A stretch of 64,000 nt of DNA from Candidatus Shapirobacteria bacterium (GCA_041661765.1 JBAZTV010000001.1:7755-71754), one strand, 5' to 3'. Counted from the stretch's first letter, positions 5,346-63,105 are shown. A program made the numbers and translations. Notes: generated by a model not told the origin, from the sequence alone.

Positions 5346-5493
5346 ACTCAATCTCCCTAAATCCCTCTTTGACAAGAGGGATTTAATAATATTATTTACC
5401 TCCCCCGTCTTGTCAAAGAAGGGGGCCGGGGGGAAGATTGAAACAATCGAGGGGTTTTGAACAAAATTAAAAATTAATTGTTAAACTAAATAT

Positions 5494-6807
5494 ATGCCTC
5501 AACAATTTACCCAAGAACAAATTGAAAAACTTAAAAATCTCGGAATCGAAGTTAATCCCAAAGACACTATTACCAACGAAAATCAACTCGCCGACTTATC
5601 CACTCCCCAACCAACCGAAACACCAAATTTACCTCCACTACCTCAACCAACCGAAACAGAAAATAATAATTTCTCCCCTTCCTCAAGGGGAGATGCGGCA
5701 AATGCCGAGAGGGGTTTAGACAAAAAAAAGACCCCTCCAGTTTTCCCTCTCCTGTCCATTTCCGGTCTCACCCTTCTCTCTTTCGGCGGTCTCGTTTTTT
5801 TAAAAGGCAATGGTTCCCAATCCAACAATCCATCTAAAATCACTCCTTCACCCGTCCGTAGTCAACAAGACGTAGGAGGGCCCACACAAGTACCTAAGTC
5901 TATCCAACATTATCTTTTAACATCACAACAATATTTTTCCCAAGCCGTTTCTAAACAATCCACTGATAATTCATCCTCTGTCGAACTACTTAATAATTCA
6001 ATTATAGCCGCAACTCAGGCAATAAAAGAATTCCCAGACGACTATCGTGGCTACCAACAACGAGGTAATATTTACCAGGCTCTTACTAGTTCAAAACCCG
6101 ATCTTTTAGATCAATCTATATCTGATTTTGCCTCTGCTTTCAAATTAAATTCCAACTCTGCTGAAATCACCCGTTCCCTCGCTTCACTTTATGCCAAAAA
6201 AGGTGATGCCAATAAAACTATTCTCTATTTAAACCAAACCGTTGCTCTCGAACCAACCAAAGCCCAAAATTTTTATGACCTTGCCAAAATCCAGCAACAA
6301 GTCGGTCTTCTTTCTCAAGCCCTCGACACTTACAGTAAACTAACCACTCTAATCACCGATCCAACCCAAAAAATCCAAGTCGAATCCGAAAAAGCTGCCC
6401 TCGAAAAACTAGTTGCTCAAAATCCACGCTCTTCCGAAGCTTCAGCGCAGGAGAGCCAAATTTTACCACCCATCGCCGCTCCATCTTCTCTCGACTCTCC
6501 AACTATTCAAGCCATGGGCGAAGGAGGTCTCATTATTGCTGCTCCCGAAGAAGACAAATCAATTACTGTCACCAACCAAACTGAATCAAATTCTCTTTCC
6601 GGAACCTCAATTATTTCCTCTGGCCAAAAAGAAATTACTATTCCCAACAACAATATTTCTTCTACTTCCCAAGTATATGTCACTGTTACAAAAGGTGGCA
6701 AAAATCAAAATCTCCAAGTCATTTCAAAATCAGAAAAATCTTTCATTGTCGGTCTCGATTCCCCAATTTCCGAAGACATCGAATTCAAATGGTGGATCAT
6801 TAATTAA
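5494..6807 (+). CDS. Membrane-anchored protein with a TPR-like helical region and a C-terminal roughly 60 aa domain homologous to the C-terminus of the upstream giant protein (ends EDIEFKWWIIN)
   Basis: ORF of 437 aa with one predicted TM helix (VFPLLSISGLTLLSFGGLVFL). Its C-terminal SQVYVTVTKGGKNQNLQVI...FIVGLDSPISEDIEFKWWIIN aligns to SMVYLTPVGSTNNQVPYI...FTISLDNYLDKDIQINWWIIN of the 6..5345 protein. An in-frame repeat insert gives SPSSRGDAANAERG near the N-terminus. Confidence 0.55.
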   Translation: MPQQFTQEQIEKLKNLGIEVNPKDTITNENQLADLSTPQPTETPNLPPLPQPTETENNNFSPSSRGDAANAERGLDKKKTPPVFPLLSISGLTLLSFGGLVFLKGNGSQSNNPSKITPSPVRSQQDVGGPTQVPKSIQHYLLTSQQYFSQAVSKQSTDNSSSVELLNNSIIAATQAIKEFPDDYRGYQQRGNIYQALTSSKPDLLDQSISDFASAFKLNSNSAEITRSLASLYAKKGDANKTILYLNQTVALEPTKAQNFYDLAKIQQQVGLLSQALDTYSKLTTLITDPTQKIQVESEKAALEKLVAQNPRSSEASAQESQILPPIAAPSSLDSPTIQAMGEGGLIIAAPEEDKSITVTNQTESNSLSGTSIISSGQKEITIPNNNISSTSQVYVTVTKGGKNQNLQVISKSEKSFIVGLDSPISEDIEFKWWIIN

Positions 6808-6815
6808 ACCCACCC

Positions 6816-7127
6816 CTAACCCCTCCCTTGACAAGGAGGGGAAATTAAATTTGCTAATTTATTTTTTACAATATTGATTTGATTTAATATTTCATCATTA
6901 GTAAATCTAATAGTTTTAATTCCAATTTGATATAAAAATTTATCTCTAGTTTCATCATATCCTTTCCTTTTGTTATGTGAACTTCCATCAATTTCTATTG
7001 CTAAATTTAATTCAGAACAATAAAAATCCAAGATAAAACGGTTTATTGGTTTTTGTCTTAAAAACTTATATCCTGTTTTTCTCTTCATTAAAATTTCTCT
7101 CCATATTTTTTCTTCAGTCATAAACAA
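6816..7127 (-). CDS. DUF559-like (Vsr/endonuclease-fold) domain protein; the C-terminal end runs into a palindromic repeat
   Basis: The motif FILDFYCSELNLAIEIDGSSH...RD.FL...GI.TIRFTNDEI resembles the DUF559 endonuclease-like domain. The ORF tail PPCQGRG is a translation of the CCTTGTCAAGGGAGG repeat. Confidence 0.45.
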   Translation of the reverse strand: MFMTEEKIWREILMKRKTGYKFLRQKPINRFILDFYCSELNLAIEIDGSSHNKRKGYDETRDKFLYQIGIKTIRFTNDEILNQINIVKNKLANLISPPCQGRG

Positions 7128-7247
7128 TTTTTTTTCTCATATTTTTATTCCCCTCCTTGTCAAGGGAGGGGTTAGGGGTGGGTTAAAACAACAAATTGAT
7201 TTTAAATAATTAGTAATATTTTTCACACTTTAATAATAAAGTTTTAA

Positions 7248-7300: not shown

Positions 7301-7429
7301 AAAAAAAGATTAATTTCTCTCCTTGTTAAGGGGAGATACCGGTTTATCCGGAGAGAAGATTTAAAATAAAAGGTGTTTCCAAACCAAAAACCTCCCTTTC
7401 TTCAAGAGAGGTTTAACTTCTTTATTATT

Positions 7430-7472
7430 TCTCCCCTATCAAGGGGAGATGCGGCGAATGCCGAGAGGGGTT
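7430..7472. repeat. Family-1 repeat: TCTCCCC-TATCAA-GGGGAGA + GATGCGGCGAATGCCGAGA + GGGGTT (a near-identical copy lies inside the CDS at about 5680..5730)
   Basis: Direct reading. Confidence 0.8.
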
Positions 7473-7473: not shown

Positions 7474-9579
7474 TTATTGTGCCGGTGCCACAGTTACCTC
7501 AGCAACCGTTGGTTGTGCAAACTGCTCAGCTGGCACTTCCACCTTTTGTTCACTTCCCACATCCGTAGCTGCTCCTTGCACCTGCCCATCCGCTGGTGCT
7601 TTTGGTTGTTCCACAGGTTGCATCTGTTCTACTGGCTGTGCCTGTTGTATTGTTTGTGTCTGATTTTTGGCCGCCTCTGCCTTAGCTGCTTCAACTGCCT
7701 TAGCCTGTTGTTCAGTTAATTTTGCCAATTCAGCCTTCCAAGTTTCTAATTCTTTCACCGCTGTTTCATAATCAGTCGAATCAGCCGACACCAAAGTCAA
7801 AGCTTGTTCTAATCTAGCCACCGCCGCAGCCAATTTATTTTGTTGCTTAGCCGCATAAGACCAATTGTACCAAGCATTAGCAAAATCAGCCTTATTTGTT
7901 GCTGCCTGTTCAAAAGCTCTCTCTGCTTGCTCATAACTACCAGCCGCATAAAGCAAACCACCCATATCTAAAGAATAAACCGGATTAACTGGATCCAAAA
8001 TCACTGTTTGTTGATAAGCCTGATAACTCCAATCAGCCGCTCCATCCACCAATCCAACCAAAGTCTTATAAATTCCCGCCAAATTATACCAATACTCTGG
8101 ATTTTTTTGATTCAATGAAATTGCTGCCTTTGCCTCTCGTACAGATTGTTGCACCAAAGTCGAAGCCTTTGTTTTATCATCATCACTAATATCTGTTTTA
8201 CTCAACAAAGTCTGGGCTAAAGACAAATTTACTTGAGAATATGTTTTTCTATAACTTGCTAAATTTGGATTAAATCCAATTGCTTTAATCTGCAATTCAT
8301 AAGTTTTAGTTCCATCATTTTTAGTTGCTGCCACCAACGACTTTCTCATATAAAAATCACCCAAAAACATTCTTCCTGCCCAAAAACTACCAAAACCCAC
8401 TCCTACCAAAACCAACACTGCCACAACATAAGGCATCACATTAAAATTCTTTTCACCCACATTCAAAATCAATTTACTCTCCTTAGTTACAAGAATATTA
8501 TTTGACAAAATCCACACTAATAAAAACACTGTCAATAAATTCAATGGCAATAATAAAGATATAGCCAAAAATAAAGCCAATTGTCCAACTTTAACTGTCT
8601 TCTTTAATCTCAAAACCATTGCAATTAAATAGAAAACTAAAACCAAACCCACCACCCCTAACTCAGTCCAAATTTGCAAAATTCCCATTGAAGAAGATGA
8701 AAATGATCCAGACCAGTAATTTGTCAAATTAAAACTCACTGGTTTAAATGAATTAAAAGCTTCCAAAAAGTTACCAATTCCCACCCCAAAAATCGGAGCC
8801 ACTTTAAAAGTTTCCGCCGCAATTACCCAGGCACTTTTAAAATCCAAAAATATCCACCCAGCTTTAAAAGCTCTATAAATATCCAGTAAAAATAAAAGCG
8901 AGAAAAAGATTGTAGCTCCTGCCTCCATCCAATAATCCTTTAAATCAGATTTTTCTTTCACTTTCTTCAATAACCCCTTTAACCATCCAAAGATTAAAAA
9001 AAGAAACAAAGTCACTTCAGCTAAAACTGAACCAGTCAAAGACCATGCCGCATTGATCGACAATAATGGATCAGTTTTTGGAATCAATAATGGTAATTTA
9101 CTTGCTGGCAACAAAAAAACTATTAATGAAATAATACCTGAAATCAATCCCGCAATTGTCAAAAACAAAAATTGCTTCTTAGTTTCTTCCTTATCATTAA
9201 CTTGAAGCCACACAAAAAACAAAATGAAAAAAGAAATAACCGTCCCCATTCCCATTGGATTCATCAAAGACACCATCTTTGATCCAGTATCAAGTCTAAA
9301 AAACGTCACACCCGACCAAATCACAAAAATTAAAAACAACCAAAAAAGTTTATTTGTCTTTACTGTTTTTTCTTTATCAGTTATCAATTTGACTGTCCAT
9401 AAAATTAATGCCACAAAAGCCATCATTGCCAATGCTAAATTTTTTCCAAAACCAAACCCATCCAACACAACCGGAATAAAAACAATTGGGAAAATTAAAA
9501 AAATTGATCGGACAAAATATTTTAAAATGGTGTTCATAGATTCAGCATAACAAAAGCATTTTTTTTTGACAATCATCAA
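7474..9579 (-). CDS. Polytopic membrane protein with an O-antigen-ligase-like (Wzy_C-type) N-terminal domain and a C-terminal TPR/coiled-coil region
   Basis: ORF of 701 aa with 10 or more hydrophobic helices in the first roughly 430 aa, then TPR-like W/Y-rich helices (PEYWYNLAGIYK, AWYNWSYAAKQQ) and an A/E/K-rich coiled coil. Confidence 0.55.
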   Translation of the reverse strand: MMIVKKKCFCYAESMNTILKYFVRSIFLIFPIVFIPVVLDGFGFGKNLALAMMAFVALILWTVKLITDKEKTVKTNKLFWLFLIFVIWSGVTFFRLDTGSKMVSLMNPMGMGTVISFFILFFVWLQVNDKEETKKQFLFLTIAGLISGIISLIVFLLPASKLPLLIPKTDPLLSINAAWSLTGSVLAEVTLFLFLIFGWLKGLLKKVKEKSDLKDYWMEAGATIFFSLLFLLDIYRAFKAGWIFLDFKSAWVIAAETFKVAPIFGVGIGNFLEAFNSFKPVSFNLTNYWSGSFSSSSMGILQIWTELGVVGLVLVFYLIAMVLRLKKTVKVGQLALFLAISLLLPLNLLTVFLLVWILSNNILVTKESKLILNVGEKNFNVMPYVVAVLVLVGVGFGSFWAGRMFLGDFYMRKSLVAATKNDGTKTYELQIKAIGFNPNLASYRKTYSQVNLSLAQTLLSKTDISDDDKTKASTLVQQSVREAKAAISLNQKNPEYWYNLAGIYKTLVGLVDGAADWSYQAYQQTVILDPVNPVYSLDMGGLLYAAGSYEQAERAFEQAATNKADFANAWYNWSYAAKQQNKLAAAVARLEQALTLVSADSTDYETAVKELETWKAELAKLTEQQAKAVEAAKAEAAKNQTQTIQQAQPVEQMQPVEQPKAPADGQVQGAATDVGSEQKVEVPAEQFAQPTVAEVTVAPAQ

Positions 9580-9696
9580 AATAGCTCTTTCCCCGCACTT
9601 TTATCGCTTTAAAAATCCACCCCTGCCCCTCCTTTGACAAAAGGAGGGAAAATTCCCCTTTAGTCAAAGGGGAAAGCGGCGAAGCCGAAGGGGATT

Positions 9697-10794
9697 TTAC
9701 CTCAACACACTCAACGGATCCAAATTCCCATTTGGACCTTTAATTTCAAAATGCAAATGAGTTCCAGTTGAACGACCGGTACTTCCCATTGTTCCAATTT
9801 TTTGCCCTTGTCTCACCACTTGTCCAGCTTGAACAATCACTGAGTTAGTCACCATATGAGCATACAAAGTTGTATATCCATTTCCATGATTAATCACTAC
9901 AAAATTACCATAACCACCACCATTCCATCCAGCACTCGTCACTGTTCCACCTTGTGCCGCCACAATCGCTGGATTACTATGATTAGCAATATCCACAGCT
10001 CGGTGATACCAATAATATTTTTGACTGATTGTTCCCGAAGTTGGCCACATAAAATTACCTTCGCCTTTAACACCTGCCACTGGTGCCACCGTTCTAGCCG
10101 CATATCTTGTCTTATCCAAAACAGTCTCTTGTGGTTTTATTCCATCTGGAACAATCAATTCTTGTCCAGCACTCAACGCAAAAGTTTCATCATTACTAAA
10201 AGTATTAAAAGGATAATCAATAATATTTTGAGCATCCACCTGATACGCCTTAGCAATACTATAAATAGTTTCTCCTCTTTTTACTTTATATCGAACCCCC
10301 GTCACCGGTAATATTCTTAAAATCTGCCCCACCTTAATCGCACCAACCGTTTTCAAGCTATTTTCCCACATAATTGTATCAATCGTCACCCCAAATTTTT
10401 GAGCAATCGATGATACTGTATCTCCATCCACCACCCGATATTCCGTAGTTTCTCCTTTTGGTAATCCCGAAACTAAAGTATCTGCACCACTATTATCTGC
10501 TGCCATAATCAAATAAGTACTTCCCTCTCCTTGATTACCACTACTATTAATTAAAGCTTCCAATTGACTCGAAAAAACTATAGTTAAGAAAGCCAAAATT
10601 GCCATACTCGCCCCAATAAAAGTCTGAGAAAATCTACCTCTCTGTCGATACATCATTTTCGAAGTCAATACTTTTAAAAAAAAGGTCCAACCCAAAAAAG
10701 TTTTTCCAAATCCATTCAAAAATCTCCCCTGCGCCTTAAGGAATTCACTCCACAATCTTACTTCACTATTAATATTTTCTTTAAAATCCGACAT
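9697..10794 (-). CDS. LysM-domain M23-family metallopeptidase (cell-wall endopeptidase)
   Basis: N-terminal TM helix; two LysM-like segments (DGDTVSSIAQKFGV, RGETIYSIAKAYQV); C-terminal M23 motifs (HRAVDIA, GYGNFVVINHGNGYTTLYAHM, GSTGRSTGTHLHFEI). Confidence 0.75.
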   Translation of the reverse strand: MSDFKENINSEVRLWSEFLKAQGRFLNGFGKTFLGWTFFLKVLTSKMMYRQRGRFSQTFIGASMAILAFLTIVFSSQLEALINSSGNQGEGSTYLIMAADNSGADTLVSGLPKGETTEYRVVDGDTVSSIAQKFGVTIDTIMWENSLKTVGAIKVGQILRILPVTGVRYKVKRGETIYSIAKAYQVDAQNIIDYPFNTFSNDETFALSAGQELIVPDGIKPQETVLDKTRYAARTVAPVAGVKGEGNFMWPTSGTISQKYYWYHRAVDIANHSNPAIVAAQGGTVTSAGWNGGGYGNFVVINHGNGYTTLYAHMVTNSVIVQAGQVVRQGQKIGTMGSTGRSTGTHLHFEIKGPNGNLDPLSVLR

Positions 10795-10888: not shown

Positions 10889-10918
10889 ATGTAGAGACGC
10901 CACGCATGGCGTCTCTAC
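10889..10918. repeat. GTAG-led perfect palindrome (ATGTAGAGACGCCACGCATGGCGTCTCTAC), family 4
   Basis: Near-identical copies at 16001..16030 (GTAGAGATGCCATGCGTGGCGTCTCTAC) and 16199..16228 (GTAGAGACGTTGCGCGCAACGTCTCTAC). Confidence 0.75.
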
Positions 10919-10981
10919 TAAAACAAAACAAATTAAATTCCCCTCCTTTAAGTCAAAGGAGGGGTTAGGGGTGGATTTTGT

Positions 10982-12412
10982 TTACTTTTTCCCAATCTTA
11001 TCCAAAAACTCCTGATTATTTTTAGTCTTAGCCATTTGGCCCAAAATCATCTCAGTAGTTTCTTCCGCCTTGCCTAAAGCATCAAACATTCTTCTAATTG
11101 AAATAATTTTAGCCATTACAGTTGGTTCTAAAAGTAAATTTTCCATTCTAGTTCCCGATCTCAAAATATCAAAAGCTGGAAAAATTCTTCTTTCAGCCAA
11201 ATTTCTTTCCAATCTCAATTCCATATTTCCAGTTCCCTTAAATTCTTCAAAAATCAAATCATCCATTTTTGAACCAGTATCCACCAAAGCTGTTCCAATA
11301 ATCGTCAACGAACCACCACCTTCAATTTTACGAGCGGCTCCAAAAAATCTTTTTGAAGGATACAAAGCAGCAGGGTCAAAACCACCCGACAATGTTCTCC
11401 CAGAAGTTGGAATTGCTAAATTGTAAGCTCGAGCCAGTCTGGTAATTGAGTCAAAAACAATAAACACATCTTTACCCATTTCTACCAATCTTTTAGCTCT
11501 TTCCATGGCAATTTCTGCCGATCGAGTTTGTTCTTCTGGTTTTTGATCAAAAGAAGACGCAATCACTTCACCTTTAATAAATCTTTGCATATCAGTCACT
11601 TCTTCTGGTCTTTCACCCACCAACACCGCCATCAAATGCACTTCTGGATAATTAATCGCAATACCTGCCGCAATTTCTTTCAATAAAGTAGTTTTACCAG
11701 CTTTAGGGGGTGACACCACCATACCTCTTTGACCAAATCCAATTGGTGAAAATAAATCAATAATTCTTGTCGAAGCTATATCAGCAGCAGTTTCCAGCTT
11801 TACCTGTTTTTGTGGATAAATTGGCACTAAATCTTTAAAATCTGGCCTATTTTGAACTTGTGATAATTCCAAATCATTAACTTTATCAATTCTCGTCATT
11901 GCCCAATATTTTTCATTTTCTTTAGGAGCCTTAGCTTGACCCAAAATCATATCCCCCACTCTTAATCCATACCGTCTAATTTGCATTGATCCAATAAAAG
12001 CATCTCTAACTGTTGGAATAAATTTAGGACGAACAAACCCCTGCCCATCTTGCATAATTTCCAAAGCCCCTAAAATAGACTCCGTTTGAACTGGAGCTGG
12101 TGGGTTATATTGAGCCTGTGGTCTTGGAGGTTGAATTGGTGCTTTTTGACCTGGTTGTACGTAAATAGTTTTTGGTTGTTCAGTTTTTACAAAAACCACT
12201 GCATTGTTATCTTTTGGTTTTTCTTCAGTTTTAACAGCCTCCCTGCTTGCCCGCCCACTGGCTGGGTCAAGGGAGGTGTTTCCGATTTCATCGGAAAGGG
12301 AGGGTTTAACCTCAGAGGGATTTTGAACAACAGGTTCTGCAACAGCAGAAACGGGTGGGTTTTTAACAACTGGATCCGCAACAACGACATCGTCGGTTTT
12401 TTTCTTTATCAT
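10982..12412 (-). CDS. rho: Transcription termination factor Rho with an extended N-terminal region that carries an in-frame nested palindromic-repeat insert
   Basis: Walker A and the Rho core (GQRGMVVSPPKAGKTTLLKEIA...VGERPEEVTDMQR...DSITRLARAYN) align residue by residue with bacterial Rho. The N-terminal segment SLSDEIGNTSLDPASGRASREAV is encoded by the composite repeat at about 12225..12330. Confidence 0.85.
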   Translation of the reverse strand: MIKKKTDDVVVADPVVKNPPVSAVAEPVVQNPSEVKPSLSDEIGNTSLDPASGRASREAVKTEEKPKDNNAVVFVKTEQPKTIYVQPGQKAPIQPPRPQAQYNPPAPVQTESILGALEIMQDGQGFVRPKFIPTVRDAFIGSMQIRRYGLRVGDMILGQAKAPKENEKYWAMTRIDKVNDLELSQVQNRPDFKDLVPIYPQKQVKLETAADIASTRIIDLFSPIGFGQRGMVVSPPKAGKTTLLKEIAAGIAINYPEVHLMAVLVGERPEEVTDMQRFIKGEVIASSFDQKPEEQTRSAEIAMERAKRLVEMGKDVFIVFDSITRLARAYNLAIPTSGRTLSGGFDPAALYPSKRFFGAARKIEGGGSLTIIGTALVDTGSKMDDLIFEEFKGTGNMELRLERNLAERRIFPAFDILRSGTRMENLLLEPTVMAKIISIRRMFDALGKAEETTEMILGQMAKTKNNQEFLDKIGKK

Positions 12413-13383
12413 TTTTTTTGGAAATTTTTAATCAATAATAATTACTTACGTAGGAACAGACCCTCGTGTCTGTTCAAATTAACAAAAAAACAAGGCAAAA
12501 ACGGGAAATTTCTTTATATTCAAACTAATTCTATCTATTAATAGCCTCTCTGTCAAGGGGTTCCCCCTCCTTTCGTCAAAGGAGGGGTTAGGGGTGGATT
12601 TAAAAATAGAGTTGAAAGTAGAAGACCTGCCCCCTCTTCTACTCTCAACTCTATTCTCAAAGCTAAATTAATTTAATTTAACCAACAGATCGGTTAATCT
12701 TAATTTGACTTTTCTACCAAATTTACCTATCTTAGATATTGAAGAAACAATGTTATTCGTGTTCCACCTGCTTTGAGAACATCGGTAGCTTTGTTTCTTT
12801 TTCGTTTCTTTAGCTAAAAATTCAAGTCATAGACGATGAATTTTTGTCTAAAGACACGATACCGGCGAAGCCGGTATATAACCGATTAAGTGAAATTCGG
12901 GGTATCAGCCCTTTTCTCTTTTCGGGTCTATTTTTAAAGTTACATCAAAATCAGCTTTCCTCTAAGTTTACCCATCTCTTTAAACTGTTTCTCCGCCCAA
13001 GTATCTTTTTTCTTGCCGGATTTTTTTGCGTTTTTAGAAGAAAACATTTTTTTAATTAATTGAAGCATTAAATTAGTATAACTCCCTTTTTGCCCTTGTC
13101 TATATCCTATATTAATTTGCCTCCCCAAAATCAACAATCCTATAATTTTTTATTTATAAAAAATAGGTTTATTTTTACCACTTTTAAACCATTTTCAGTC
13201 ATTGTGGATAACCTGAGGATAATTAAAATAAGGACTTCTCCCTTGCTTGTCCGTCCGTAGCTTTAGCGAAGGAGGATTAAGGAGAACTGCCCGCAGGGCT
13301 AAGTGGCTTTAAAACCAAAAAAAAAGGGAAAACACAATATCTAAAAAATTAGACATTATATTTCCCCTTAAGACAGACATACT

Positions 13384-14545: not shown

Positions 14546-15928
14546 TCAAGTTTTTAACTCCTTCACATTCTTTATCTCCACCAATTTCCTCCCCAAACTT
14601 TTCGCTTCCTTCTTTCTTTTCTCCAAATTCCTCACCTTTCTCACTTCTCCCAACAAACTCACCTCACCCACATAAACAGGAAGATTTCTCTCCTTGTTAA
14701 GGAGAGATTTAGAGGGGTTTGAACCAAGGGGCAGATTTCGATACGAACTCCACATTGCCGCCAACACCGCCAAGTCCGCCGCCGTCTCATCAATTTTCAC
14801 TCCACCCGTCACCGACAAAAACACATCATATTTATACAAAGGTATCCCTAAACTTTTTTGAGCAATCGCCACCATTAATTGTCCCCGATTATAATCAATC
14901 CCCGAAAAAATTCTTTTCGGCATCGGCGCAAAACTTTCCACTACCAAAGCTTGAATTTCCAACATCATCGGTCTAGTTCCCTCCATCACAACAGTAACAG
15001 CACTCCCAATTTTACTTTCCTTACTCTCGATTAAATTAATTTCTTCCGATTTAATTTCTCGAAGTCCTTTTTCCTCCATTTTAAAAACCCCCACCTCATC
15101 CGTCGGACCAAACCGATTTTTACTAGTTCGAAGAATTCTTAAGTCCCCATTTTTTTCTCCCTCAAAATACAAAACCGTATCTACCATGTGTTCCAACAGT
15201 TTTGGTCCAGCAATATCCCCATCCTTCGTCACATGTCCCACAATAAAAATTGCCATCCCTTTTTTCTTTGCCATTTGTATTAATCTAAAAGTTGATTCCT
15301 TAATCTGACTTACAGATCCGGCTCCCCCAGATATCAGCGATCCGGAGCCATTGGCGTAGGACGCCATCACCTGAATCGAGTCTACCACCGCTATTTTGTA
15401 CAACTTTTGTGTTCGATCCAAAAACTCCTCCAATTCATCAATCGAATTTGTGCCTAAAACATCGAAGTTATTCGCATTTAAACCTAACCTTTTTACCCTC
15501 AACCCAATTTGCTCCGCCGATTCCTCCCCAGCCACATATAATCCACCTATCTTTCCAATTAATTGAGTCAATAAAGTACTCTTACCAATCCCTGGTTCTC
15601 CAGAAAAAAGTACCGCCGACCCTTGAACAATTCCTTTACCCAAAACTCTATCAAATTCGGAAATACCCGTAGAAAACACACATGAATTTGTAGGAACAGA
15701 CCCTCGTGTCTGTTCCTTGTTTTTATCAAAATCCCCTAAATTAACAATTTCTAATTTCTCTCCTCCAATTTTTATTTTATTTTTTATTTTTCCATTTCCT
15801 AAAAATTTATTTGAAACTTCTTTCAATGAATTCCACTCCCCACAACCACCACACTGCCCCGCCCATTTTCCAAATTCATTTCCACAATTACTACATACAA
15901 AAACCGTCTCTTTATTTTTCATTACCAA
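14546..15928 (-). CDS. radA: DNA repair protein RadA/Sms carrying two in-frame palindromic-repeat inserts
   Basis: N-terminal C4 zinc ribbon (CSNCGNEFGKWAGQCGGCGEW); RecA-like ATPase (GEPGIGKSTLLTQL) with KNRFGPT; C-terminal Lon-like domain. The insert NKEQTRGSVPTNSCV is encoded by the GTAGGAACAGACCCTCGTGTCTGTTC hairpin at 15688..15714, and NPSKSLLNKERNLP by the repeat at about 14685..14720. Confidence 0.85.
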   Translation of the reverse strand: MVMKNKETVFVCSNCGNEFGKWAGQCGGCGEWNSLKEVSNKFLGNGKIKNKIKIGGEKLEIVNLGDFDKNKEQTRGSVPTNSCVFSTGISEFDRVLGKGIVQGSAVLFSGEPGIGKSTLLTQLIGKIGGLYVAGEESAEQIGLRVKRLGLNANNFDVLGTNSIDELEEFLDRTQKLYKIAVVDSIQVMASYANGSGSLISGGAGSVSQIKESTFRLIQMAKKKGMAIFIVGHVTKDGDIAGPKLLEHMVDTVLYFEGEKNGDLRILRTSKNRFGPTDEVGVFKMEEKGLREIKSEEINLIESKESKIGSAVTVVMEGTRPMMLEIQALVVESFAPMPKRIFSGIDYNRGQLMVAIAQKSLGIPLYKYDVFLSVTGGVKIDETAADLAVLAAMWSSYRNLPLGSNPSKSLLNKERNLPVYVGEVSLLGEVRKVRNLEKRKKEAKSLGRKLVEIKNVKELKT

Positions 15929-16000: not shown

Positions 16001-16030
16001 TGTAGAGATGCCATGCGTGGCGTCTCTACA
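16001..16030. repeat. Family-4 GTAGAGA-palindrome copy
   Basis: Direct reading. Confidence 0.75.
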
Positions 16031-17439: not shown

Positions 17440-17574
17440 GTAGGGGTACTCTTCCGTAGTTTTAGCGCAGGAGAGCCCAAATAAATTAATAATAAAACAC
17501 TTAAATTTATTGAATCGAATTCTTTTTAAGTCCCTCTTGTCAAAGAGGGATTTAGGGAGATTGTATTTAGTTTC

Positions 17575-17698
17575 TGAATTCTGGCCACGACCTATCTTCA
17601 AGATCCCTTGCGGGAAGACTATTGTCAGCGCTAAAGCGTTTCACTTCTCTGTTCGAAATGGGAAGAGGTGGTTCCACCTCGCTCCAATGACCAGAGTT
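17575..17698 (-). rRNA. rrf: 5S ribosomal RNA
   Basis: The reverse complement reads ...CCACCTCTTCCCATTTCGAACAGAGAAGTGAAACGCTTTAGCGCTGACAATAGT..., which matches the conserved 5S loop B/C region (CCCACCTGACCCCATGCCGAACTCAGAAGTGAAACGCCGTAGCGCCGATGGTAGT). The ends are approximate. Confidence 0.7.
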
Positions 17699-17799
17699 CA
17701 AAAACTAAACTAATCGAAATGTATTGTAATTTAATTAAAATTCTTTTTTCTTGGCCTCTAAATTGAGTTGCCCTATTCAGCTTCCAAACCCAAATTTTG

Positions 17800-20795
<2,996 letters not shown>

Positions 20796-20946
20796 CAATA
20801 TTTGGCAACTCAATTTAGTTGCCAAGAATAAACGAAATTGAAATTAAATTACTTTCGATTCAATAAATTGTTAATGTACAAATACTTAGTTAAAGGAGAT
20901 AAATTTCTTTGTCTCCTTATTTCTAACCATTTATTTAGTGGATTTA

Positions 20947-21042: not shown

Positions 21043-21080
21043 AAGTGCTTTCTTCTTTAAAGTACTGCTTTCAAGCATTA

Positions 21081-49050: not shown

Positions 49051-49127
49051 CTCCCTTGCTTGTCCGTCCGCAGCTTTAGCAAAGGAGGATCAAGGGAGGT
49101 GGTCCGAAATTTCGGACCGGAGGGTTT
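49051..49127. repeat. Composite or nested repeat: a family-1 hairpin A split by an inserted CTTGTCCGTCCGCAGCTTTAGCAAAGGAGGAT unit (family 2), followed by hairpin B (TGGTCCGAAATTTCGGACC) and GGAGGGTTT
   Basis: CTCCCTTG[CTTGTCCGTCCGCAGCTTTAGCAAAGGAGGAT]CAAGGGAGG... Equivalent composites occur at 13240..13300, 12225..12330 (inside rho) and 49638..49717. Confidence 0.7.
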
Positions 49128-49637: not shown

Positions 49638-49717
49638 CTCTCTTGCTTGTCCGTTCGCAGCTTTAGCGTAGGAGGATCAAGGGAAGCTGTTCCGATTTAT
49701 CGGGACTGAGGGGTTTT
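49638..49717. repeat. Composite family-1/family-2 repeat (CTCTTGCTTGTCCGTTCGCAGCTTTAGCGTAGGAGGATCAAGGGAAG + CTGTTCCGATTTATCGGGAC + TGAGGGGTTTT)
   Basis: Direct reading; same nested organisation as 49051..49127. Confidence 0.7.
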
Positions 49718-51218: not shown

Positions 51219-51488
51219 AGCTGCTATTTTATCATAAAAACTAACAATCTAATATTATTTAAACCCTCCTTGTCAAGGGAGGGTCTCCGATTTATCGGAG
51301 GGGTGGGTTTTGTTTAATTTGATATCTTTTCTTTTGTGGAAAACTCATCTAATATAAACATTACCCCAATCGATTTTTCCACAATTTCGATTTTAAACTC
51401 CTGCCTATTTAACCGTTATTTTTTATGATTTTAATCTCCCTTTAATCAAAGGGAGAAACTCCGCGACAGCGGAGAGAGGAATTTAAAA

Positions 51489-56635: not shown

Positions 56636-59221
56636 TTAAACTATCCCGTCTCCAAACAATTTATCATAATCCATCTTATTGTCTTCTTTTTTAAATTCTC
56701 CCTTGTCAAGGGGAGATGTCGATTTATCGACAGAGGGGTTTGAATCAAATATTGGTTGTGGTTTTCTTGCCAATTGTGGTGGTTGAGGTATTCTTTGTTC
56801 TTCAGTTTTAACAAAAATCGGTTTTTTATTTTCCGAGACCACTACAACTTCTGGCCTTTTAAATAACACCGACTCAGTTTTTAACTCCGGTTTTATTTCA
56901 GTCATCGCTACTGTGGGATTAAAGGAGGTGTTCCGCAGTGGCGGAACGGAGGGTTTTACTTCAATTTCCACTGGTTTTATTTCGGGAACACTAACTTTAG
57001 GAGTAAAATTAATGGTTCTTATTTCATCAGTTTTATTAGCAGTCAATGCTGACTCAACTGGTTTTACCTCCATCGGTTTTATTTCTAAAACATTAAAATT
57101 AGTTGTCGTTTCAGGCATTTTAATCTCCATTGATTTTATTTGCCCTGCCCTGTCAAGGGAAGGGTTAGTGAAGGGTTTAGGTACTTCTGGTGGGACTGAG
57201 GGGTTTTGAACCGGAATTTTATTTTCAATCTCTACAGTTTTTATTTCTGGAATATTAAATTTTGGCGCCACTGGAGTCGTTTTTACCTCGACTGGTTTTA
57301 AGTCTCCCTTGTCAAAGGGAGATTTAGAGGGATTGAAAACAGCTGATGGGTTTTGAAACGGTTTCGTTTCTATCGGTTTAATTAGTGGTTTCATTCCATT
57401 ATTTGGCTTTTGATCACTCAATAAACTTTGCTTTTTTAAAATATCTTCTGGATTAGAAGTAATTAAATTATGTTCATCAGCCGAAGCAATTATTTGAATT
57501 GCCACATGGTTTTGCCCAGCAAAGAAAATTCCTTCACCTTTACTTGCCGATAATAATAATTGTTTTTCTCCCTGACTCAAATAAAATACTTCTCCAATTT
57601 GGTCAATAGCCGCACTATGTTGTTTTAATAAAATTTGAATTGAACTATTAGTAACTATTTCTTTACCATAAGCAGTTTTCAAAAAATCATCAACATCTTG
57701 GGTAATTGTTGTCACTCCCAAATAGTATTTTCTGCCTCTTTTAACAATTCCTCTTAAAAATTCAGCTGAATCATCATGTTGCATCAAATACCAGGCTTCA
57801 TCCACCACCAATATTCTTTTTTTCAATGTCTTTTTAACAACCGTCCAAATATAATCCAAAATAATTTGCATTGCCACAGGTCTCAAAGCATCTTCCAAAT
57901 TTCTAATTCCAAAAACTACAAATTTATTAGTTAAATTAACCGTTGTCTTTTGGTTAAAAATTCCCGAAAAGGATCCTTTAATATATTTTTCCAATCTGGC
58001 TGCCAAACCTTTAGCTTTTTCATCTTCCATTCCAATCAAAGATTTATACAAATCCTCAATTAATGGTGGTTCTTTGTCTTGAGTTACTGGATCAGGAGTA
58101 ATCCCTTTCATCTTATAAGCATCCATCATTGCTCTATCCATAATTGATTCCTCAATCGGATCCATTTCACCCAACATCACTTTTAATAGTTTATGTAAAG
58201 ATAAGATCTTAGTATTTAAACCATTTTCACCCTGTTCTTCGGCTAAAGTTAAATCAAACGGATTAATTTTTGAACCTTCACCATAACCAAATGCAATATA
58301 TTGGCCGCCAGAATTATCACACAATTCTTTGTATTCATTTTCCGGGTCAATCACAATAACATCCGTTCCCATCATTAATGATCTAAGAACCTCCAATTTA
58401 ATTAAATAAGATTTACCAGCTCCAGCCATAGCAAAAACAACTGAATTATAATTTGGCATTGAAAATCTATCAAAAATTACCAAAGACCCATTATGCATAT
58501 TAATCCCATACATAATTCCCTGATCATCTGATAAATCTGACGACACAAAAGGGAAAGTAGTTGCCAAAGAGGTAGTATCCATATTTCGACTAACTGCCAA
58601 TCTATCTTGGCAAATAGGTAAAGTCGATACAAATCCATCTTCCATTTGTAACGTCGCTTTTTTACTTATAATCAACAACGATCCCAAGGCTGCCTCTAAA
58701 TTTTTATTTACTCTATCCAGTTCAACTATAGAATCAGCCGTTATCGTTACATAAAGTCCAAATTGAAAAAATCTTTCTTCGCCTTTAACCAAATTAGCCT
58801 GCAAATTCAAAGCATCCTCCAATTTCGCTTGTGTTGCTGGATTAATCAATCTACCCCTTTGAATATCAGTACTTAACTCGGCCTCCATTTCTGTGATTTT
58901 TCGGCGAAGATCATCTAAAACTTCTTTTCCATCGGTCGGATAAATAAACATTGAAATATTTAAAGAAGAATCAAAGTTAATCAATGACGACAACCAATTA
59001 ATTCCCACAAATCTCGGATATGCCGCAACAAATAAAGTTCGATAATATTTATTATCAATTCTAATATGGTTAAAATCCACTTCCAAAGCTGATGGAGCAA
59101 TTATATCTTTAGTTGTCACCAACCCTTGAGTGAAATCTCTTTTATTTGGATCAACTACCTCTGTTGGTGTTGCTGGATTATTTACTACTGTTGTTTTTTT
59201 ATTAATATTAAAAAGTTTCAT
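56636..59221 (-). CDS. virB4: VirB4/TrbE/CagE-family T4SS ATPase with a C-terminal extension of about 270 aa that reads through four palindromic repeats
   Basis: Walker A VFAMAGAGKSYLIKLEVL; Walker B ILVVDEAWYLM; conserved RKYYLGVTTITQDVDDF. The tail contains SKSPFDKGDLKP, NPSLDRAGQIK and TSPLDKGEFKK, encoded by repeats at 56697..57331. Confidence 0.8.
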   Translation of the reverse strand: MKLFNINKKTTVVNNPATPTEVVDPNKRDFTQGLVTTKDIIAPSALEVDFNHIRIDNKYYRTLFVAAYPRFVGINWLSSLINFDSSLNISMFIYPTDGKEVLDDLRRKITEMEAELSTDIQRGRLINPATQAKLEDALNLQANLVKGEERFFQFGLYVTITADSIVELDRVNKNLEAALGSLLIISKKATLQMEDGFVSTLPICQDRLAVSRNMDTTSLATTFPFVSSDLSDDQGIMYGINMHNGSLVIFDRFSMPNYNSVVFAMAGAGKSYLIKLEVLRSLMMGTDVIVIDPENEYKELCDNSGGQYIAFGYGEGSKINPFDLTLAEEQGENGLNTKILSLHKLLKVMLGEMDPIEESIMDRAMMDAYKMKGITPDPVTQDKEPPLIEDLYKSLIGMEDEKAKGLAARLEKYIKGSFSGIFNQKTTVNLTNKFVVFGIRNLEDALRPVAMQIILDYIWTVVKKTLKKRILVVDEAWYLMQHDDSAEFLRGIVKRGRKYYLGVTTITQDVDDFLKTAYGKEIVTNSSIQILLKQHSAAIDQIGEVFYLSQGEKQLLLSASKGEGIFFAGQNHVAIQIIASADEHNLITSNPEDILKKQSLLSDQKPNNGMKPLIKPIETKPFQNPSAVFNPSKSPFDKGDLKPVEVKTTPVAPKFNIPEIKTVEIENKIPVQNPSVPPEVPKPFTNPSLDRAGQIKSMEIKMPETTTNFNVLEIKPMEVKPVESALTANKTDEIRTINFTPKVSVPEIKPVEIEVKPSVPPLRNTSFNPTVAMTEIKPELKTESVLFKRPEVVVVSENKKPIFVKTEEQRIPQPPQLARKPQPIFDSNPSVDKSTSPLDKGEFKKEDNKMDYDKLFGDGIV

Positions 59222-60843: not shown

Positions 60844-60932
60844 CCTTTAATTCTACCAGTAAACGGTTTAATTTAAAATAAAAATGAAGTCGCCCTGTCA
60901 AGGGAGATGTCCGAAGGACAGAGGGTTTTAAT

Positions 60933-61886
60933 TTGATAAACTACCTTATGTCAAAATTAGTCATTGTTGATGGTCATGCCATTATTCATCGAGCCTATCA
61001 TTCAATTCCACCCTTAACTTCCAATGGTCAACCCGTCAATGCTCTCTACGGTTTTTACTCCATGCTTCTCACTGCCATAAACACTCTTAATCCTAAATAT
61101 TTAGTCGTTTGCCTCGATTCTCCCGGTCCTAATTTTCGCAACCATGAATTTTTAGGTTATCGGGCTAAACGTAAACCAGCAGATTCTGATTTAATTTCTC
61201 AATTACCATTACTAGAATCAACCTTAAAACAGGCTGAAATTACCACTTTTTCTATGGGAGGGTTTGAAGCCGATGATTTAATTGCCACTATTACTGCCAA
61301 AGCTCTCAAAAAAATAAATAAAAATAAGCGAAAGTTGATTGACGAAATTATCATTATCACTGGTGATAAAGATTTAATGCAATTAGTCGACAAAAAGGTT
61401 TCTCTTTTTGTCCCTATTCGCGGTCTTTCGGAAACTAAAATGTTTAAACCAAATGATGTCGAAGAAAAACTCGGAGTTTTACCTACTCAAGTTATCGACC
61501 TAAAGGCTCTAATGGGAGATATGTCCGACAATTACCCTGGTGTTGCTGGCATCGGTCCTAAAGTCGCCACTGATCTCCTTTCTGAATATCAAAATTTAGA
61601 CAATATTTATCAAAATTTAGACAATATTAAACCATCCATTAGGGAAAAATTAGAAAATAGTAAAGATAATGCCTATCTTTCGCAAAAATTAGCCACGCTT
61701 ATCAGTAATATTCCTCTCAATTTTAAACTTTCTTCCGCTAGATGGACCCCAACCTCTTTCACTAATTTAATTTCTCTCTTTAAAACCTTTAATTTTAAAT
61801 CTTTAGTTCAACGAGTTGAAAAACAAAATCCAATTAAAATTAATCATAAAAATGAAATCCAAACACACCAAACCTCACTATTCTAA
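60933..61886 (+). CDS. Stand-alone 5'-3' exonuclease (FEN-like, the PolA N-terminal domain family)
   Basis: LVIVDGHAIIHRAYHS...; acidic clusters (GFEADDLIATI, ITGDKDLMQL); H3TH-like GIGPKVATDLL. Confidence 0.8.
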   Translation: MINYLMSKLVIVDGHAIIHRAYHSIPPLTSNGQPVNALYGFYSMLLTAINTLNPKYLVVCLDSPGPNFRNHEFLGYRAKRKPADSDLISQLPLLESTLKQAEITTFSMGGFEADDLIATITAKALKKINKNKRKLIDEIIIITGDKDLMQLVDKKVSLFVPIRGLSETKMFKPNDVEEKLGVLPTQVIDLKALMGDMSDNYPGVAGIGPKVATDLLSEYQNLDNIYQNLDNIKPSIREKLENSKDNAYLSQKLATLISNIPLNFKLSSARWTPTSFTNLISLFKTFNFKSLVQRVEKQNPIKINHKNEIQTHQTSLF

Positions 61887-63105
61887 AGAAAAGTCGCCCC
61901 TGTCAAAGGGAGATGCCCGCAGGGCAGAGGGGTTTGTTCCAAAAATAGTTTTAGTCCAAGACTACATCAAAGAATTCGGAGGTGCTGAGTCCGTTCTCGA
62001 AACATTATCTGAAATTTTCCCTAAAGCTCCTATTTACACCACTCTCTATAAACCAGAATTTCTTGGTCCTCATCAATCTCGTCTCCAAAAAAAATGGGAG
62101 AGCCGGGTCCATCAAAGCTTTTTTCAATATATTCCTTTTGTCCACAAAATCATCAGCCCTCTTCGTCTTTTATCTCCCTTAGCCTTTAAATCTTTTGATT
62201 TTTCTAAGTTCGACATCATTATTACTTCAGCCACTGGTGCCTATTTCCCTAATTTAATTAACAAAAAAAGTGCCAAATTAGTTTGTTATTGCCACACTCC
62301 ACCTCGTTATCTTTATGGTCTTCCTACTGCTCGTAACTTCACTAAAAATAAATTCATTTATGCCTTAATTCAGGTTTTAAATCACCTTTTGAGAATTATC
62401 GATTTCAAATCTTCCCAAAATGTTGACCAATTTATCGCCAATTCTCAAACCACCGCCGACCGCATCAAAAAATTCTACCGCCGCGATTCCATCATTATTA
62501 ATCCGCCTATTGAAACAATAAAAGAAAAGGCGAGCGATGGTGATGTTTCCGCGCGCAATATCCGAGGTGCACTACCGAAGGGCGTGAGCACGGAAAAATT
62601 ATCATCCGAGCCATATTTCTTAACCGGTGGCCGATTAGCTCGTGCCAAACGTTACGACATCGCCATTCAAGCCTGCAATCAATTAAATTTAAAATTAAAA
62701 ATTTTCGGCCGTGATTTTGCCAATTTTTCCGATGAATTAAAAGCCATGGCTGGCCCTACTATTGAATTTTTAGGTGAAGTTACTCAAGACCAAAAAGACC
62801 TACTTTATTCCCAAGCCCAAGCTTTTATTTTTTGTTCCGACAACGAAGATTTTGGCATGGTTCCAGTCGAATCTATGGCCCATGGCTGTCCAGTCATTGC
62901 CTATAAAAGTGGGGGAACCACTGAGACTGTTATCGACAGTAAAACTGGTGTTTTTTTTGATGAATTAACCCCTAAATCATGTGCCACCGCCATTCAAAAA
63001 TTTCAAAAATTAAAAATCAATTCCAAAGACTGCATTTCCCGCGCTGCCGATTTCTCCACCGAAAAATTTGTTTCCAAAATTAAAAAACTAGTTTTTAGCC
63101 TTTAA
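61816..63105 (+). CDS. GT4-family (GT-B) glycosyltransferase. The start is uncertain: the track ORF overlaps the exonuclease by 70 nt, and the N-terminus and one internal loop are repeat-encoded.
   Basis: C-terminal EX7E-type motif ...FCSDNEDFGMVPVESMAHGCPVIAYKSGGTTETV. KSPLSKGDARRAEGFVP (61895..61940) and SARNIRGALPKGVST (62551..62593) are repeat translations. Confidence 0.65.
   Translation: MKNKIQLKLIIKMKSKHTKPHYSKEKSPLSKGDARRAEGFVPKIVLVQDYIKEFGGAESVLETLSEIFPKAPIYTTLYKPEFLGPHQSRLQKKWESRVHQSFFQYIPFVHKIISPLRLLSPLAFKSFDFSKFDIIITSATGAYFPNLINKKSAKLVCYCHTPPRYLYGLPTARNFTKNKFIYALIQVLNHLLRIIDFKSSQNVDQFIANSQTTADRIKKFYRRDSIIINPPIETIKEKASDGDVSARNIRGALPKGVSTEKLSSEPYFLTGGRLARAKRYDIAIQACNQLNLKLKIFGRDFANFSDELKAMAGPTIEFLGEVTQDQKDLLYSQAQAFIFCSDNEDFGMVPVESMAHGCPVIAYKSGGTTETVIDSKTGVFFDELTPKSCATAIQKFQKLKINSKDCISRAADFSTEKFVSKIKKLVFSL

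Follow-up and report, generated by a model that had tools for sequence, protein, structure and literature searches.

The 64,000-nt stretch of a Candidatus Shapirobacteria genome analyzed here (GCA_041661765.1, JBAZTV010000001.1:7755-71754; the window) is crowded with a short structured repeat. We conclude that this repeat is a family of the BoxC/PIT (potential intrastrand triplex) type in a bacterium of the candidate phyla radiation (CPR), and not a riboregulator made of two hairpins and a tail. Its design matches the published class II intrastrand purine-motif triplex, in which pyrimidine, purine and reverse-Hoogsteen domains follow one another on a single strand (Hoyne/Maher 2000; Holder et al. 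2015, PMC4666352); the "distinct architecture" proposed in the initial annotation, a model's reading of the same DNA, is thus one already described. The repeat is most likely a selfish element acting at the DNA level. We assign a probability of roughly 0.65 to a selfish family of small non-autonomous DNA elements that conserve a three-arm, one-strand design and whose fold is selected at the DNA level.

Read along one strand, a copy consists of a 5' pyrimidine arm, a loop (T)GTCA(A), a complementary purine arm, a turn, and a third arm of purines or T. All 40 clean copies follow the class II order of 5'-pyrimidine, purine and reverse-Hoogsteen-3' domains. The third arm, or tail, is the purine arm written backwards, with A or T matching A, as in TCTCCCCT-gtca-AGGGGAGA-ttt-AGAGGGGT, TCCCTCTT-gtca-AAGAGGGA-ttt-AGGGAGAT and CCCCTCCTTT-aagtc-AAAGGAGGGG-tta-GGGGTGGATT. 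The initial annotation had described a hairpin A, a hairpin B and a tail that repeats the 3' arm of hairpin A. Mirror (third-strand) covariation is beyond the reach of a covariance model, and a custom tail test was used instead, made non-circular by choosing hairpins solely as perfect pyrimidine/purine stems of at least 6 bp and inspecting the tail later. A full-length mirror of the hairpin's own arm was present within 45 nt in 23 of 29 window hairpins, versus a full-length direct copy in 1 of 29; with arms swapped between window copies, only 5% gave a full-length fit. The same test on related Shapirobacteria loci returned 77/104 mirror and 7/104 direct tails, and 6.5% for swapped arms. The covariation is mirror-symmetric, not direct or Watson-Crick, and neither the repeated tail nor the three-part anatomy built on it is supported.

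The arms are 6 to 10 nt long, and 22 distinct purine arms occur among the 40 clean copies, which bears out the earlier observation that stems co-vary while loop 1 stays the same. Copying of the replication type produces repeats that are direct or inverted rather than mirrored. That 22 arm variants co-vary in mirror fashion therefore argues for selection on a structure whose third arm lies antiparallel to the purine arm, and this co-change of three arms is unusually clear evolutionary evidence for selection on a triplex-type fold. Indeed, the 331 arm positions of the clean copies comprise 190 C-G·G, 63 T-A·T, 56 T-A·A and 22 other combinations, so that 309 (93%) are canonical purine-motif triplets. 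When the complementary strand or most of the mRNAs are read in the pyrimidine motif, only 74% of the triplets are valid. T occupies 53% of the tail positions facing A, which fits a purine motif on the + strand and is therefore evidence for action at the DNA level. Purine-motif triplexes do not form in RNA (PMC4666352).

Seventeen of the 40 clean copies are short forms, with a turn of 2 to 5 nt (ttt in eight copies, tta in five, ccg in one, others of 2 to 5 nt) in place of hairpin B. The hairpin B that had been attributed to every copy is real in the long form, where it is an optional insert in the turn. Of the 29 long linkers, 26 form perfect hairpins, which brings their two ends together and so preserves tight-turn geometry. 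The commonest hairpin B loop is a C-GNA-G triloop (7/29 in the window, 16/42 in relatives), a mini-hairpin motif that is exceptionally stable in DNA (PMC3201870, PMC13037366); the loops previously taken as GNRA-like are mostly such triloops or A-TTTA-T, not RNA GNRA tetraloops. Hairpin modules also sit within loop 1, at 12238, 13236, 42490, 49051 and 49649. Loop 1 reads GTCA in 23 of the 40 copies, corresponding to TTGACA on the opposite strand. The stems lie within the limits of the ITxF search (6 to 15 nt with no more than one mismatch; PMC4666352), and its loop limit of 1 to 6 nt is respected by the ~17 short forms; in long forms loop 2 (or 1) spans 12 to 35 nt, beyond that limit, but as a closed hairpin with adjacent ends.

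In total we count about 50 copies, 40 clean and 10 degenerate, of 30 to 76 nt each; they occupy 2114 nt (3.3% of the window, 0.78 copies per kb). This total includes long-loop and degenerate copies beyond the strict structure scan, which by itself finds 35 three-arm + strand copies and ~5 genuine - strand copies. The same scan of 20 dinucleotide shuffles yields 0 to 3 (+) and 0 to 5 (-), and the real count is far above chance; mirror-anchored scans with very wide loops proved too noisy and were set aside. The motif TGTCAAGG occurs 20 times in the window versus 1.5 expected. By itself, GAGGGTTTT is only weakly enriched (7 versus 1.7 expected) because the tail sequence changes along with the arm. 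An example oligonucleotide of the repeat strand is TCTCCCCTGTCAAGGGGAGATTTAGAGGGGT. All 25 positions listed by the initial annotation are copies, and its dense family stands. The copies are clumped in spacers and leave 1-5350, 32.7-38.3 kb and 51.5-56.7 kb free. They are not a CRISPR: they are scattered, with irregular spacings that range from 50 nt to 6 kb, they differ in sequence, and genes lie between them. An Rfam search of the window at gathering thresholds matched rRNA and tRNA only and no family for the repeat.

The copies are listed below with their strand and, where counted, the fraction of triplets; ORF stands for open reading frame, and L018, L038, L046, L070 (isolate STF2_89), L082 and L105 are related loci.

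5351-5381, -: short form TCCCTCTT-gtca-AAGAGGGA-ttt-AGGGAGAT, 8/8 triplets; inverted pair with 5402; absent in L070
5402-5438, +: short form CCCCCGTCTT-gtca-AAGAAGGGGG-ccg-GGGGGAAGAT, 9/10 triplets; CCG turn as in E. coli type B; absent in L070
5672-5716, +: long form with hairpin B, within ORF 5494-6807 (+), 9/9 triplets; three copies in the L070 region
6808-6841, -: short form CCCCTCCTT-gtca-AGGGAGGGG-tta-GGGGTGGGT, 8/9 triplets; 0 nt from the stop of ORF 5494-6807, left of the DUF559 ORF
7150-7183, +: short form, the same as 6808-6841 in inverted orientation, to the right of the DUF559 ORF, 8/9 triplets; absent in L070
7249-7297, +: long form CCTCCCT-gtca-AGGGAGG, 24-nt hairpin B, GGAGGGT, 7/7 triplets; the L070 ortholog has the same arms and another hairpin B
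7316-7360, +: degenerate long form, 7/9 triplets
7430-7471, +: long form, 2 nt from the stop of ORF 7474-9579 (-), 8/8 triplets
9614-9648, -: short form, inverted pair with 9653, 9/9 triplets
9653-9696, +: long form TTCCCCTTT/AAAGGGGAA/AAGGGGATT with a GCGAAGC-type mini-hairpin, 9/9 triplets; abuts the stop of ORF 9697-10794
10940-10977, +: short form CCCCTCCTTT-aagtc-AAAGGAGGGG-tta-GGGGTGGATT, 10/10 triplets; 4 nt from the rho stop
12238-12305, +: hairpin modules in both loops, in frame in rho (ORF 10982-12412), 7/7 triplets
12545-12562, +: degenerate hairpin A remnant (CCTCTCTGTCAAGGGG)
12564-12600, +: short form, 10/10 triplets
13236-13308, +: loop 1 holds a GCTTTAGC hairpin module and loop 2 holds hairpin B, 7/8 triplets
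14687-14719, +: short form, in frame in radA, residues ~404-414 (NPSKSLLNKERN), 8/9 triplets; another arm variant in L046
16046-16087, +: degenerate long form
17531-17561, +: short form, 17 nt past the 5S rRNA gene, 8/8 triplets
22905-22934, +: short form near the 5' end of the GH18 ORF, 6/7 triplets
25687-25739, +: long form between tRNA-Ile and the stop of ORF 25756-26700, 6/7 triplets
26715-26745, +: short form filling the 35-nt spacer of two RimK-like genes and overlapping a stop codon, 8/8 triplets
27493-27527, +: short form, in frame in a RimK-like gene (NPSKSPFDLKGDL), 9/9 triplets
27854-27892, +: long form, 3 nt from the stop of ORF 27896-29260, 6/7 triplets
29281-29311, +: short form TCTCCCCT-gtca-AGGGGAGA-ttt-AGAGGGGT, abutting the stop of ORF 29312-30178, 8/8 triplets
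30292-30333, +: long form, GCA triloop in hairpin B, upstream of + strand pilin genes, 7/9 triplets
32180-32222, +: degenerate long form between + strand genes
32642-32675, +: short form, 8/9 triplets
38326-38368, +: long form, 6/7 triplets; conserved in L038
40085-40121, +: short form, 7 nt past the stop of + strand gene 38260-40077, 10/10 triplets
40443-40490, +: long form abutting the ftsH stop, 8/9 triplets; cleanly absent in L038
42490-42550, +: nested hairpin in loop 1 plus hairpin B, 8/9 triplets; whole copy missing from L038
42875-42910, -: short form, inverted pair with 42917, 9/10 triplets; absent in L082 and L038
42917-42961, +: long form CTCCCCT/AGGGGAG/GAGGGGT, 7/7 triplets
44828-44870, +: degenerate long form within ORF 42963-45959
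45030-45063, +: short form within ORF 42963-45959 (NPSLDRAG), 8/9 triplets
45146-45189, +: long form within ORF 42963-45959, 7/7 triplets; L082 has the module in loop 1, not loop 2
46342-46393, +: long form, 7/7 triplets; absent in L082 and L105
46480-46524, +: long form, 6/7 triplets; ORF 46508-47737 ends at a TAA in its hairpin B loop
48370-48403, +: short form, in frame in a Wzy_C gene (NPSLDRVG), 8/9 triplets
48814-48861, +: long form within ORF 47746-49023, 6/7 triplets
49051-49126, +: GCTTTAGC module in loop 1 plus hairpin B, 7/7 triplets; absent in relatives
49649-49715, +: degenerate, loop-1 module, overlapping the yidC 3' end; absent in relatives
51264-51308, +: long form in the rnpA-dnaA spacer, 7/8 triplets; absent in relatives
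51435-51483, +: long form, 5 nt upstream of the dnaA start, 8/9 triplets; present in L105, absent in L018
56697-56739, +: long form, C-terminal tail of a VirB4/TraG-like ORF, 7/8 triplets
56908-56955, +: degenerate long form, same VirB4/TraG-like ORF
57143-57176, +: short form, VirB4/TraG-like ORF (NPSLDRAG), 7/9 triplets
57303-57333, +: short form, VirB4/TraG-like ORF (NPSKSPFDKGDL), 8/8 triplets
60890-60926, +: long form, GAA triloop, 6 nt upstream of a 5'-3' exonuclease gene, 6/7 triplets
61895-61934, +: degenerate long form, GCA triloop

Most copies are not conserved at orthologous sites; the family probably spreads and turns over quickly. Seven related loci are collinear with the window at 77-90% nucleotide identity. 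In an alignment with orthologous regions of related genomes, at least 12 copies were cleanly absent at their orthologous sites (5351, 5402, 7150, 12238, 40443, 42490, 42875, 46342, 46480, 49051, 49649 and 51264). At 46480, AAAGA is followed by 49 nt and then GAGGTTC in the filled state, and in L082, where the site is empty, AAAGA stands directly before GACCTTC, which makes this a clean 49-nt insertion; no target-site duplication was visible here or at the filled/empty sites 40443, 42490, 49649 and 51264. Insertions are also nested, since the L082 copy at 42490 is otherwise identical but lacks the 19-nt hairpin of loop 1. At 7249 hairpin B has been swapped with the arms unchanged (versus L070). 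Different arm variants, all obeying the triplet rule, occupy the shared sites 42917, 9653, 10940, 14687 (radA), 48370, 48814 and 45030. Site 9653 in L046, for example, holds a CCTCCCT-type copy, and at 42917 one position is altered on all three strands, from T-A·A to C-G·G, where L082 has TCTCCCTT/AAGGGAGA/AGAGGGAT and no hairpin B. Arms may be replaced by rapid compensatory change in place, by overwriting from other family members, or by repeated insertion at hot spots.

Copies lie both after stop codons and inside genes, as first reported. Of the + strand copies, 13 sit next to the stop codon of a - strand gene, at distances that range from -19 to +16 nt and do not exceed 7 nt for 12 of them, and two of the four - strand copies, 5351 and 6808, follow + strand genes in the same relative orientation. 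ORF 46508-47737 (a polysaccharide-synthesis protein) and yidC read into a copy and end at a TAA in its hairpin B loop (46508-46524 and 49697-49715), so there the element supplies the last codons and the stop. At least 12 copies lie within long ORFs, always in the only frame that is free of stops, reading (N/K)PS...SP(F/L)DKG(D/E)L. The hosts are RadA, Rho, a RimK-like ligase, a Wzy-type protein, a DUF4012 protein (three copies) and the C-terminal tail of a VirB4/TraG-like ATPase (four copies). In RadA, comparison with the S. pneumoniae protein (5lkm) shows ~10 extra residues, located in a C-terminal-domain loop. The Rho copy at 12238 is a 63-nt in-frame insertion: exactly 63 nt are missing in L046, and the peptide KPSLSDEIGNTSLDPASGRASREA is not in the STF2_89 ortholog. 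These genic copies look like insertions filtered by selection.

Several neighboring features were recorded alongside the copies. A hairpin module around AGCTTTAGC has 5 matches versus 0.2 expected (13259, 20955, 49072, 49659 and 50261), located in loop 1 of three triplex copies, beside tRNA-Ala and within yidC. This looks like a small module in its own right that becomes nested within other repeats. Another palindromic repeat, unrelated to the triplex family, is GTAGAGACGCCAYGCRTGGCGTCTCTAC (4 half-sites versus 0.1 expected). It occurs at 10891-10918 and 16002-16029, each time just upstream (in + coordinates) of a triplex copy, and is also found in L046; in STF2_89, a palindrome related to GTAGAGACGCCAYGCRTGGCGTCTCTAC takes the place of copy 9614. 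At 32116-32139, after the + strand gene 31718-32098, a CCCCTCC-aataattt-GGAGGGG hairpin followed by TTTTT carries no mirror tail and looks like an ordinary terminator, showing arms of the same type when the third arm is absent. The identical inverted copies 6808-6841 (-) and 7150-7183 (+) enclose a 103-aa DUF559 (Vsr-like endonuclease) ORF, 6816-7127 (-). In STF2_89 (L070 5908-6096) this segment aligns inverted and the 7150 copy is missing; it could be an invertible or mobile cassette, or the product of recombination between the inverted copies. A 1779-aa ORF at 6-5345, whose sole Pfam match is the Peptidase_S74 chaperone domain, is repeat-free over 5.3 kb, and an array of five or six small type IV secretion system (T4SS)-pilin paralogues lies at 30299-32598.

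The orientation of the element is locked to the DNA strand. In the window the + strand carries 46 of the 50 copies, and the four - strand copies all have a + strand copy next to them, including the closely spaced inverted pairs 5351/5402, 9614/9653 and 42875/42917. The earlier statement that copies occur in both orientations is correct in that - strand copies exist, but misleading given this ratio. GC skew on the + strand is strong and uniformly negative (mean ~-0.29; the window is ~35% GC). Counting related records of either polarity as well, the element has its G-rich strand on the C-rich strand of the genome 84 times out of 93 (84:9); the relatives give 66 of 72 (66:6), and in them orientation is independent of the direction of the nearest gene (21:3 versus 41:2, Fisher p = 0.34). 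The element runs against the background skew, so base composition is not its source. GC skew normally reports the replication strand. The segment 49134-54262 is a classical origin neighborhood, with jag, yidC and rnpA (-) followed by dnaA and dnaN (+), and the spacer between dnaA and dnaN contains two perfect DnaA boxes, TTATCCACA, at 52865 and 52877. The coding strand of dnaA and dnaN is C-rich.

We favor the following account. Where the repeat strand becomes single-stranded, the hairpin would form and the tail, running antiparallel to the purine arm, could occupy the major groove and make G·G-C, A·A-T and T·A-T triplets. Such a fold most likely enables copies to be made or retained, as in a selfish element of the repetitive extragenic palindromic (REP) or Rickettsia palindromic element (RPE) type with structured single-stranded DNA as substrate, and the copies that survive are those in spacers, at gene 3' ends (where some provide the gene's stop codon) and, in frame, within protein regions that tolerate them.

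Several points weigh against this account. Triplex formation in the cell, the fold as the selected trait and the mode of movement are what we infer rather than observe. Single strands of the E. coli family, TMECO, form the triplex in vitro, and neither duplex DNA nor in vivo dimethyl sulfate (DMS) footprinting gave a signal (PMC4666352). The strong conservation of loop 1 is left unexplained by a triplex. Pfam identified no transposase or RAYT family among the ~40 window ORFs, and neither a target-site duplication nor a target motif was definable from ~10 filled/empty pairs, so that mobility is deduced solely from presence and absence. Moreover, neither GC skew (~-0.28 on both sides) nor element orientation flips at dnaA-dnaN, which leaves the link between orientation and replication unproven; either the origin lies elsewhere or the strand asymmetry is not the usual skew of bidirectional replication. 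Should the G-rich - strand be the leading strand, then the lagging-strand template, which spends the most time exposed in single-stranded form, is not the + strand that would form the triplex.

Set against the selfish element is an unlikely reading in which the triple-helical fold is a functional, strand-polar DNA signal in replication or repair (a strand mark, a site of replisome pausing or priming, or a recombination seed) used by this reduced-genome lineage and by members of several other phyla that have the same GTCA-loop design. If it were true, the three-way covariation would prove for the first time, from evolution, that intrastrand DNA triplexes arise in living cells and matter there. 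Quite unlikely, in our judgment, is a signal of replication or chromosome polarity (fork pausing, priming, strand marking) that serves the host and is not selfish. Like polar motifs, the repeat combines high density with an extreme bias to one skew strand, and PIT elements stop DNA polymerase in vitro (PMC4666352), but the copies are clumped, with long empty stretches and no regular spacing, most are not kept in relatives, and the genic ones resemble insertions that selection has filtered. Okazaki-like regular spacing was rejected, the copies being clumped with multi-kb gaps.

Two readings at the RNA level we consider very unlikely. The initial annotation proposed a built-in terminator or switch in which hairpin A alternates with a pairing of 5' arm and tail that encloses hairpin B and ends in a U-run. 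The pairing is possible with G-U pairs, several copies end in TTTT, a few (e.g., 27493, 40085 and 26715) score as terminator-like, and 13 copies abut stop codons. The alternative fold, however, is less stable than hairpin A plus B by an average of 6.4 kcal/mol, most minimum-energy folds leave the tail unpaired, and the covariation is of the mirror kind (23/29 versus 1/29). With 46 of 50 copies on the + strand and most genes on the - strand, most copies are antisense to the genes they follow: the transcript has the complement and no U-run past the hairpin. Gene direction has no bearing on orientation, coding sequence contains at least 12 copies, and no Rfam family matches. Terminator-like matches on either strand cover ~6 of 15 copies in 25-45 kb, and the intrinsic terminator class was rejected with the T-run on the antisense strand for most copies.

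The second RNA-level reading, judged just as improbable, is a pyrimidine-motif RNA triple helix at mRNA 3' ends, of the class IV order H(Y)-linker-Y-loop-R on the - strand transcript, giving ENE-type protection. Most copies lie directly 3' of - strand gene stops (12 within 7 nt), the - strand copies 5351 and 6808 keep the same relation to + strand genes, and pyrimidine-type intrastrand triplexes can form in RNA (PMC4666352). Against it, the T that faces A at 53% of positions becomes A in RNA, and A·A-U is not a pyrimidine-motif triplet (74% versus 93% valid); C+ runs require acid pH; and copies beside other-strand genes in relatives keep their DNA orientation (21:3).

Hardly credible is a G-quadruplex or i-motif made by the G-runs of purine arm and tail, for although some variants have four G-tracts of at least 2 (e.g., GGAGGGG-tta-GGGGTGGG), common ones do not (e.g., AAGAGGGA-ttt-AGGGAGAT and AGGGGAGA-ttt-AGAGGGGT), and a quadruplex explains neither the per-position A/T matching nor the conserved complementary pyrimidine arm. 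Equally hard to credit is a promoter cassette whose loop is a TTGACA -35 hexamer on the strand of most genes: - strand loop variants do keep TTGA (TTGACA in 23/36, plus TTGACT, TTGATA, TTAACA and TTGAAA), but TANNNT is not enriched at 16-18 nt (2, 0 and 2 of 36), promoter-like sites number 68 versus 69.9 in shuffles, the same loop is found in genic copies and downstream of the 5S rRNA gene, and E. coli PIT elements have no promoter activity (PMC4666352).

The window is bacterial, with 23S and 5S rRNA genes and two tRNA genes, all on the - strand. Its rRNA operon is broken up (17579-25619), with four ORFs (VTT domain, GH18, one of unknown function and DUF5684; 21268-25466) between 5S, 23S and tRNA-Ala on one side and tRNA-Ile on the other, and no 16S gene is in the window. 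Exact protein matches place the window in two metagenome assemblies, where arrays of T4SS-pilin paralogues, a typical CPR feature, are among the adjacent genes; SRR18595301 and ERZ27249449 are examples of samples containing the organism. A scan of 185,579 species genomes with the 18-mer CCTCCCTGTCAAGGGAGG found many metagenome-assembled genomes (MAGs) of Candidatus Shapirobacteria (Microgenomates, Patescibacteria). The related collinear loci come from isolate STF2_89 and from MAGs labeled "uncultured Gammaproteobacteria". Four of the latter (SRP192927_co6_55, co5_99, co2_434 and co2_309) align collinearly with the window at 71-90% identity and contain the repeat family as well, and their label is almost certainly wrong; the loci concerned are:

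L011, L015, L018, L025, L028, L031, L035, L038, L044, L045, L047, L048, L050, L055, L066, L080, L085, L094 and L105

Matches to CCTCCCTGTCAAGGGAGG in other phyla have the mirror tail too, sometimes with a turn hairpin and sometimes as inverted pairs with different turns, like those of E. coli; the search pattern itself selects the GTCA loop, toward which these matches are biased. Examples come from Spirochaetales (with 6 copies over 8 kb), Allosphingosinicella, another Patescibacteria lineage (with 5 copies over 8 kb), Bacteroidota/Ignavibacteria/Chlorobiota, Selenomonadales, Saccharibacteria, Peribacteria and Dehalococcoidia. The Spirochaetales locus (L052) has TCCCCCT-gtca-AGGGGGA-atg-AGGGGGT six times in 8 kb; the Allosphingosinicella locus (L026) has inverted pairs with tta and ctg turns; L071 is Patescibacteria UBA1372; and L062, L079 and L102 are from Bacteroidota, Ignavibacteria and Chlorobiota, with the same gtca-loop design. 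Genomes of the Fibrobacterota-Chlorobiota-Bacteroidota (FCB) group have AAGTCCTCCCTGTCAAGGGAGGATTTAGGTGGGTT in common. Only 2 matches to the repeat 18-mer were found among the viral contigs of IMG/VR, and phage as a vector was rejected. A literature search of limited scope found no link of CPR/Patescibacteria to such repeats.

Intrastrand triplex repeats of the BoxC/PIT kind have been known since the 1990s and have so far had no demonstrated in vivo structure, function or mode of spread. The E. coli copies are nearly identical, so there is no covariation signal there. The 22 arm variants in 64 kb, with more in relatives, follow the triplet rules and supply, now for a DNA triple helix, the type of evidence that established RNA secondary structures. 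About 3% of such CPR genomes consists of these repeats, which affects gene calling (extended ORFs, stops given by the element), assembly and protein-family alignments; ITxF-type searches with loops of 1 to 6 nt would overlook the long forms. Handles on the family are offered by the strand-locked orientation, the DNA-type GNA mini-hairpins at the turn, the filled and empty sites, and the copies translated in RadA and Rho.

Among known systems, MITEs (miniature inverted-repeat transposable elements) are likewise small, non-autonomous, structured and insertion-polymorphic; unlike them, the window repeat has no terminal inverted repeats apart from its hairpin and no detected target-site duplication. 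The initial comparison with REP and RPE elements was apt as regards the behavior of a structured, very dense repeat family. REPs and bacterial interspersed mosaic elements (BIMEs), with their RAYT, an IS200/IS605-like Y1 transposase, are also short GC-rich hairpins at gene ends, often just 3' of stops, without target-site duplications, and a strand-biased biology of single-stranded DNA is plausible for both. REPs differ in being extragenic by definition and in having a conserved 5' tetranucleotide, a RAYT gene and no mirror arm, whereas here at least 12 copies are genic and no Y1 transposase occurs among the ~40 window ORFs. RPEs, at ~100-150 bp longer than the window repeat, are very abundant small palindromic repeats of a reduced genome, with both non-coding and in-frame translated genic copies. 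R. felis has 728 RPEs, 85 of them in ORFs (PMC1166351), a density of ~0.5 per kb that is comparable to ours, but descriptions of them include no mirror or third-strand arm, their hosts belong to a different phylum, and they show no apparent relation in sequence to the window copies.

The closest relative in design is E. coli BoxC, also named PIT and TMECO, CCCTCTCCC-TGT-GGGAGAGGG-TTA/CCG-GGGTGAGGG (PMC4666352). It shares the pyrimidine arm, loop, purine arm, 3-nt turn and mirror purine/T arm, the same triplets, the TTA and CCG turns (types A and B) and close inverted pairs (five in MG1655), and it is likewise multi-copy, variable among relatives and without a known enzyme or function. No window copy has the arms of the TMECO consensus CCCTCNCCC-N3-6-GGGNGAGGG-N3-GGGNGAGGG, and the two are separate sequence families. 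The M. aeruginosa genome is ~5.8 Mb. With its 443 motifs it gives the highest density that we could derive from the published survey (PMC4666352), and the window repeat is about ten times as dense; at 0.78 per kb it also contrasts with TMECO, which has 23 copies in 4.6 Mb. What is new relative to the published kind, beyond density and a CPR host of ~35% GC, is the 22 co-varying arm variants where TMECO is near-invariant, whole hairpins of 12 to 28 nt in loop 2 and sometimes loop 1, a conserved loop 1 (GTCA), a strand-locked orientation where E. coli shows no bias, and, where TMECO is always intergenic, copies translated in frame within conserved genes.

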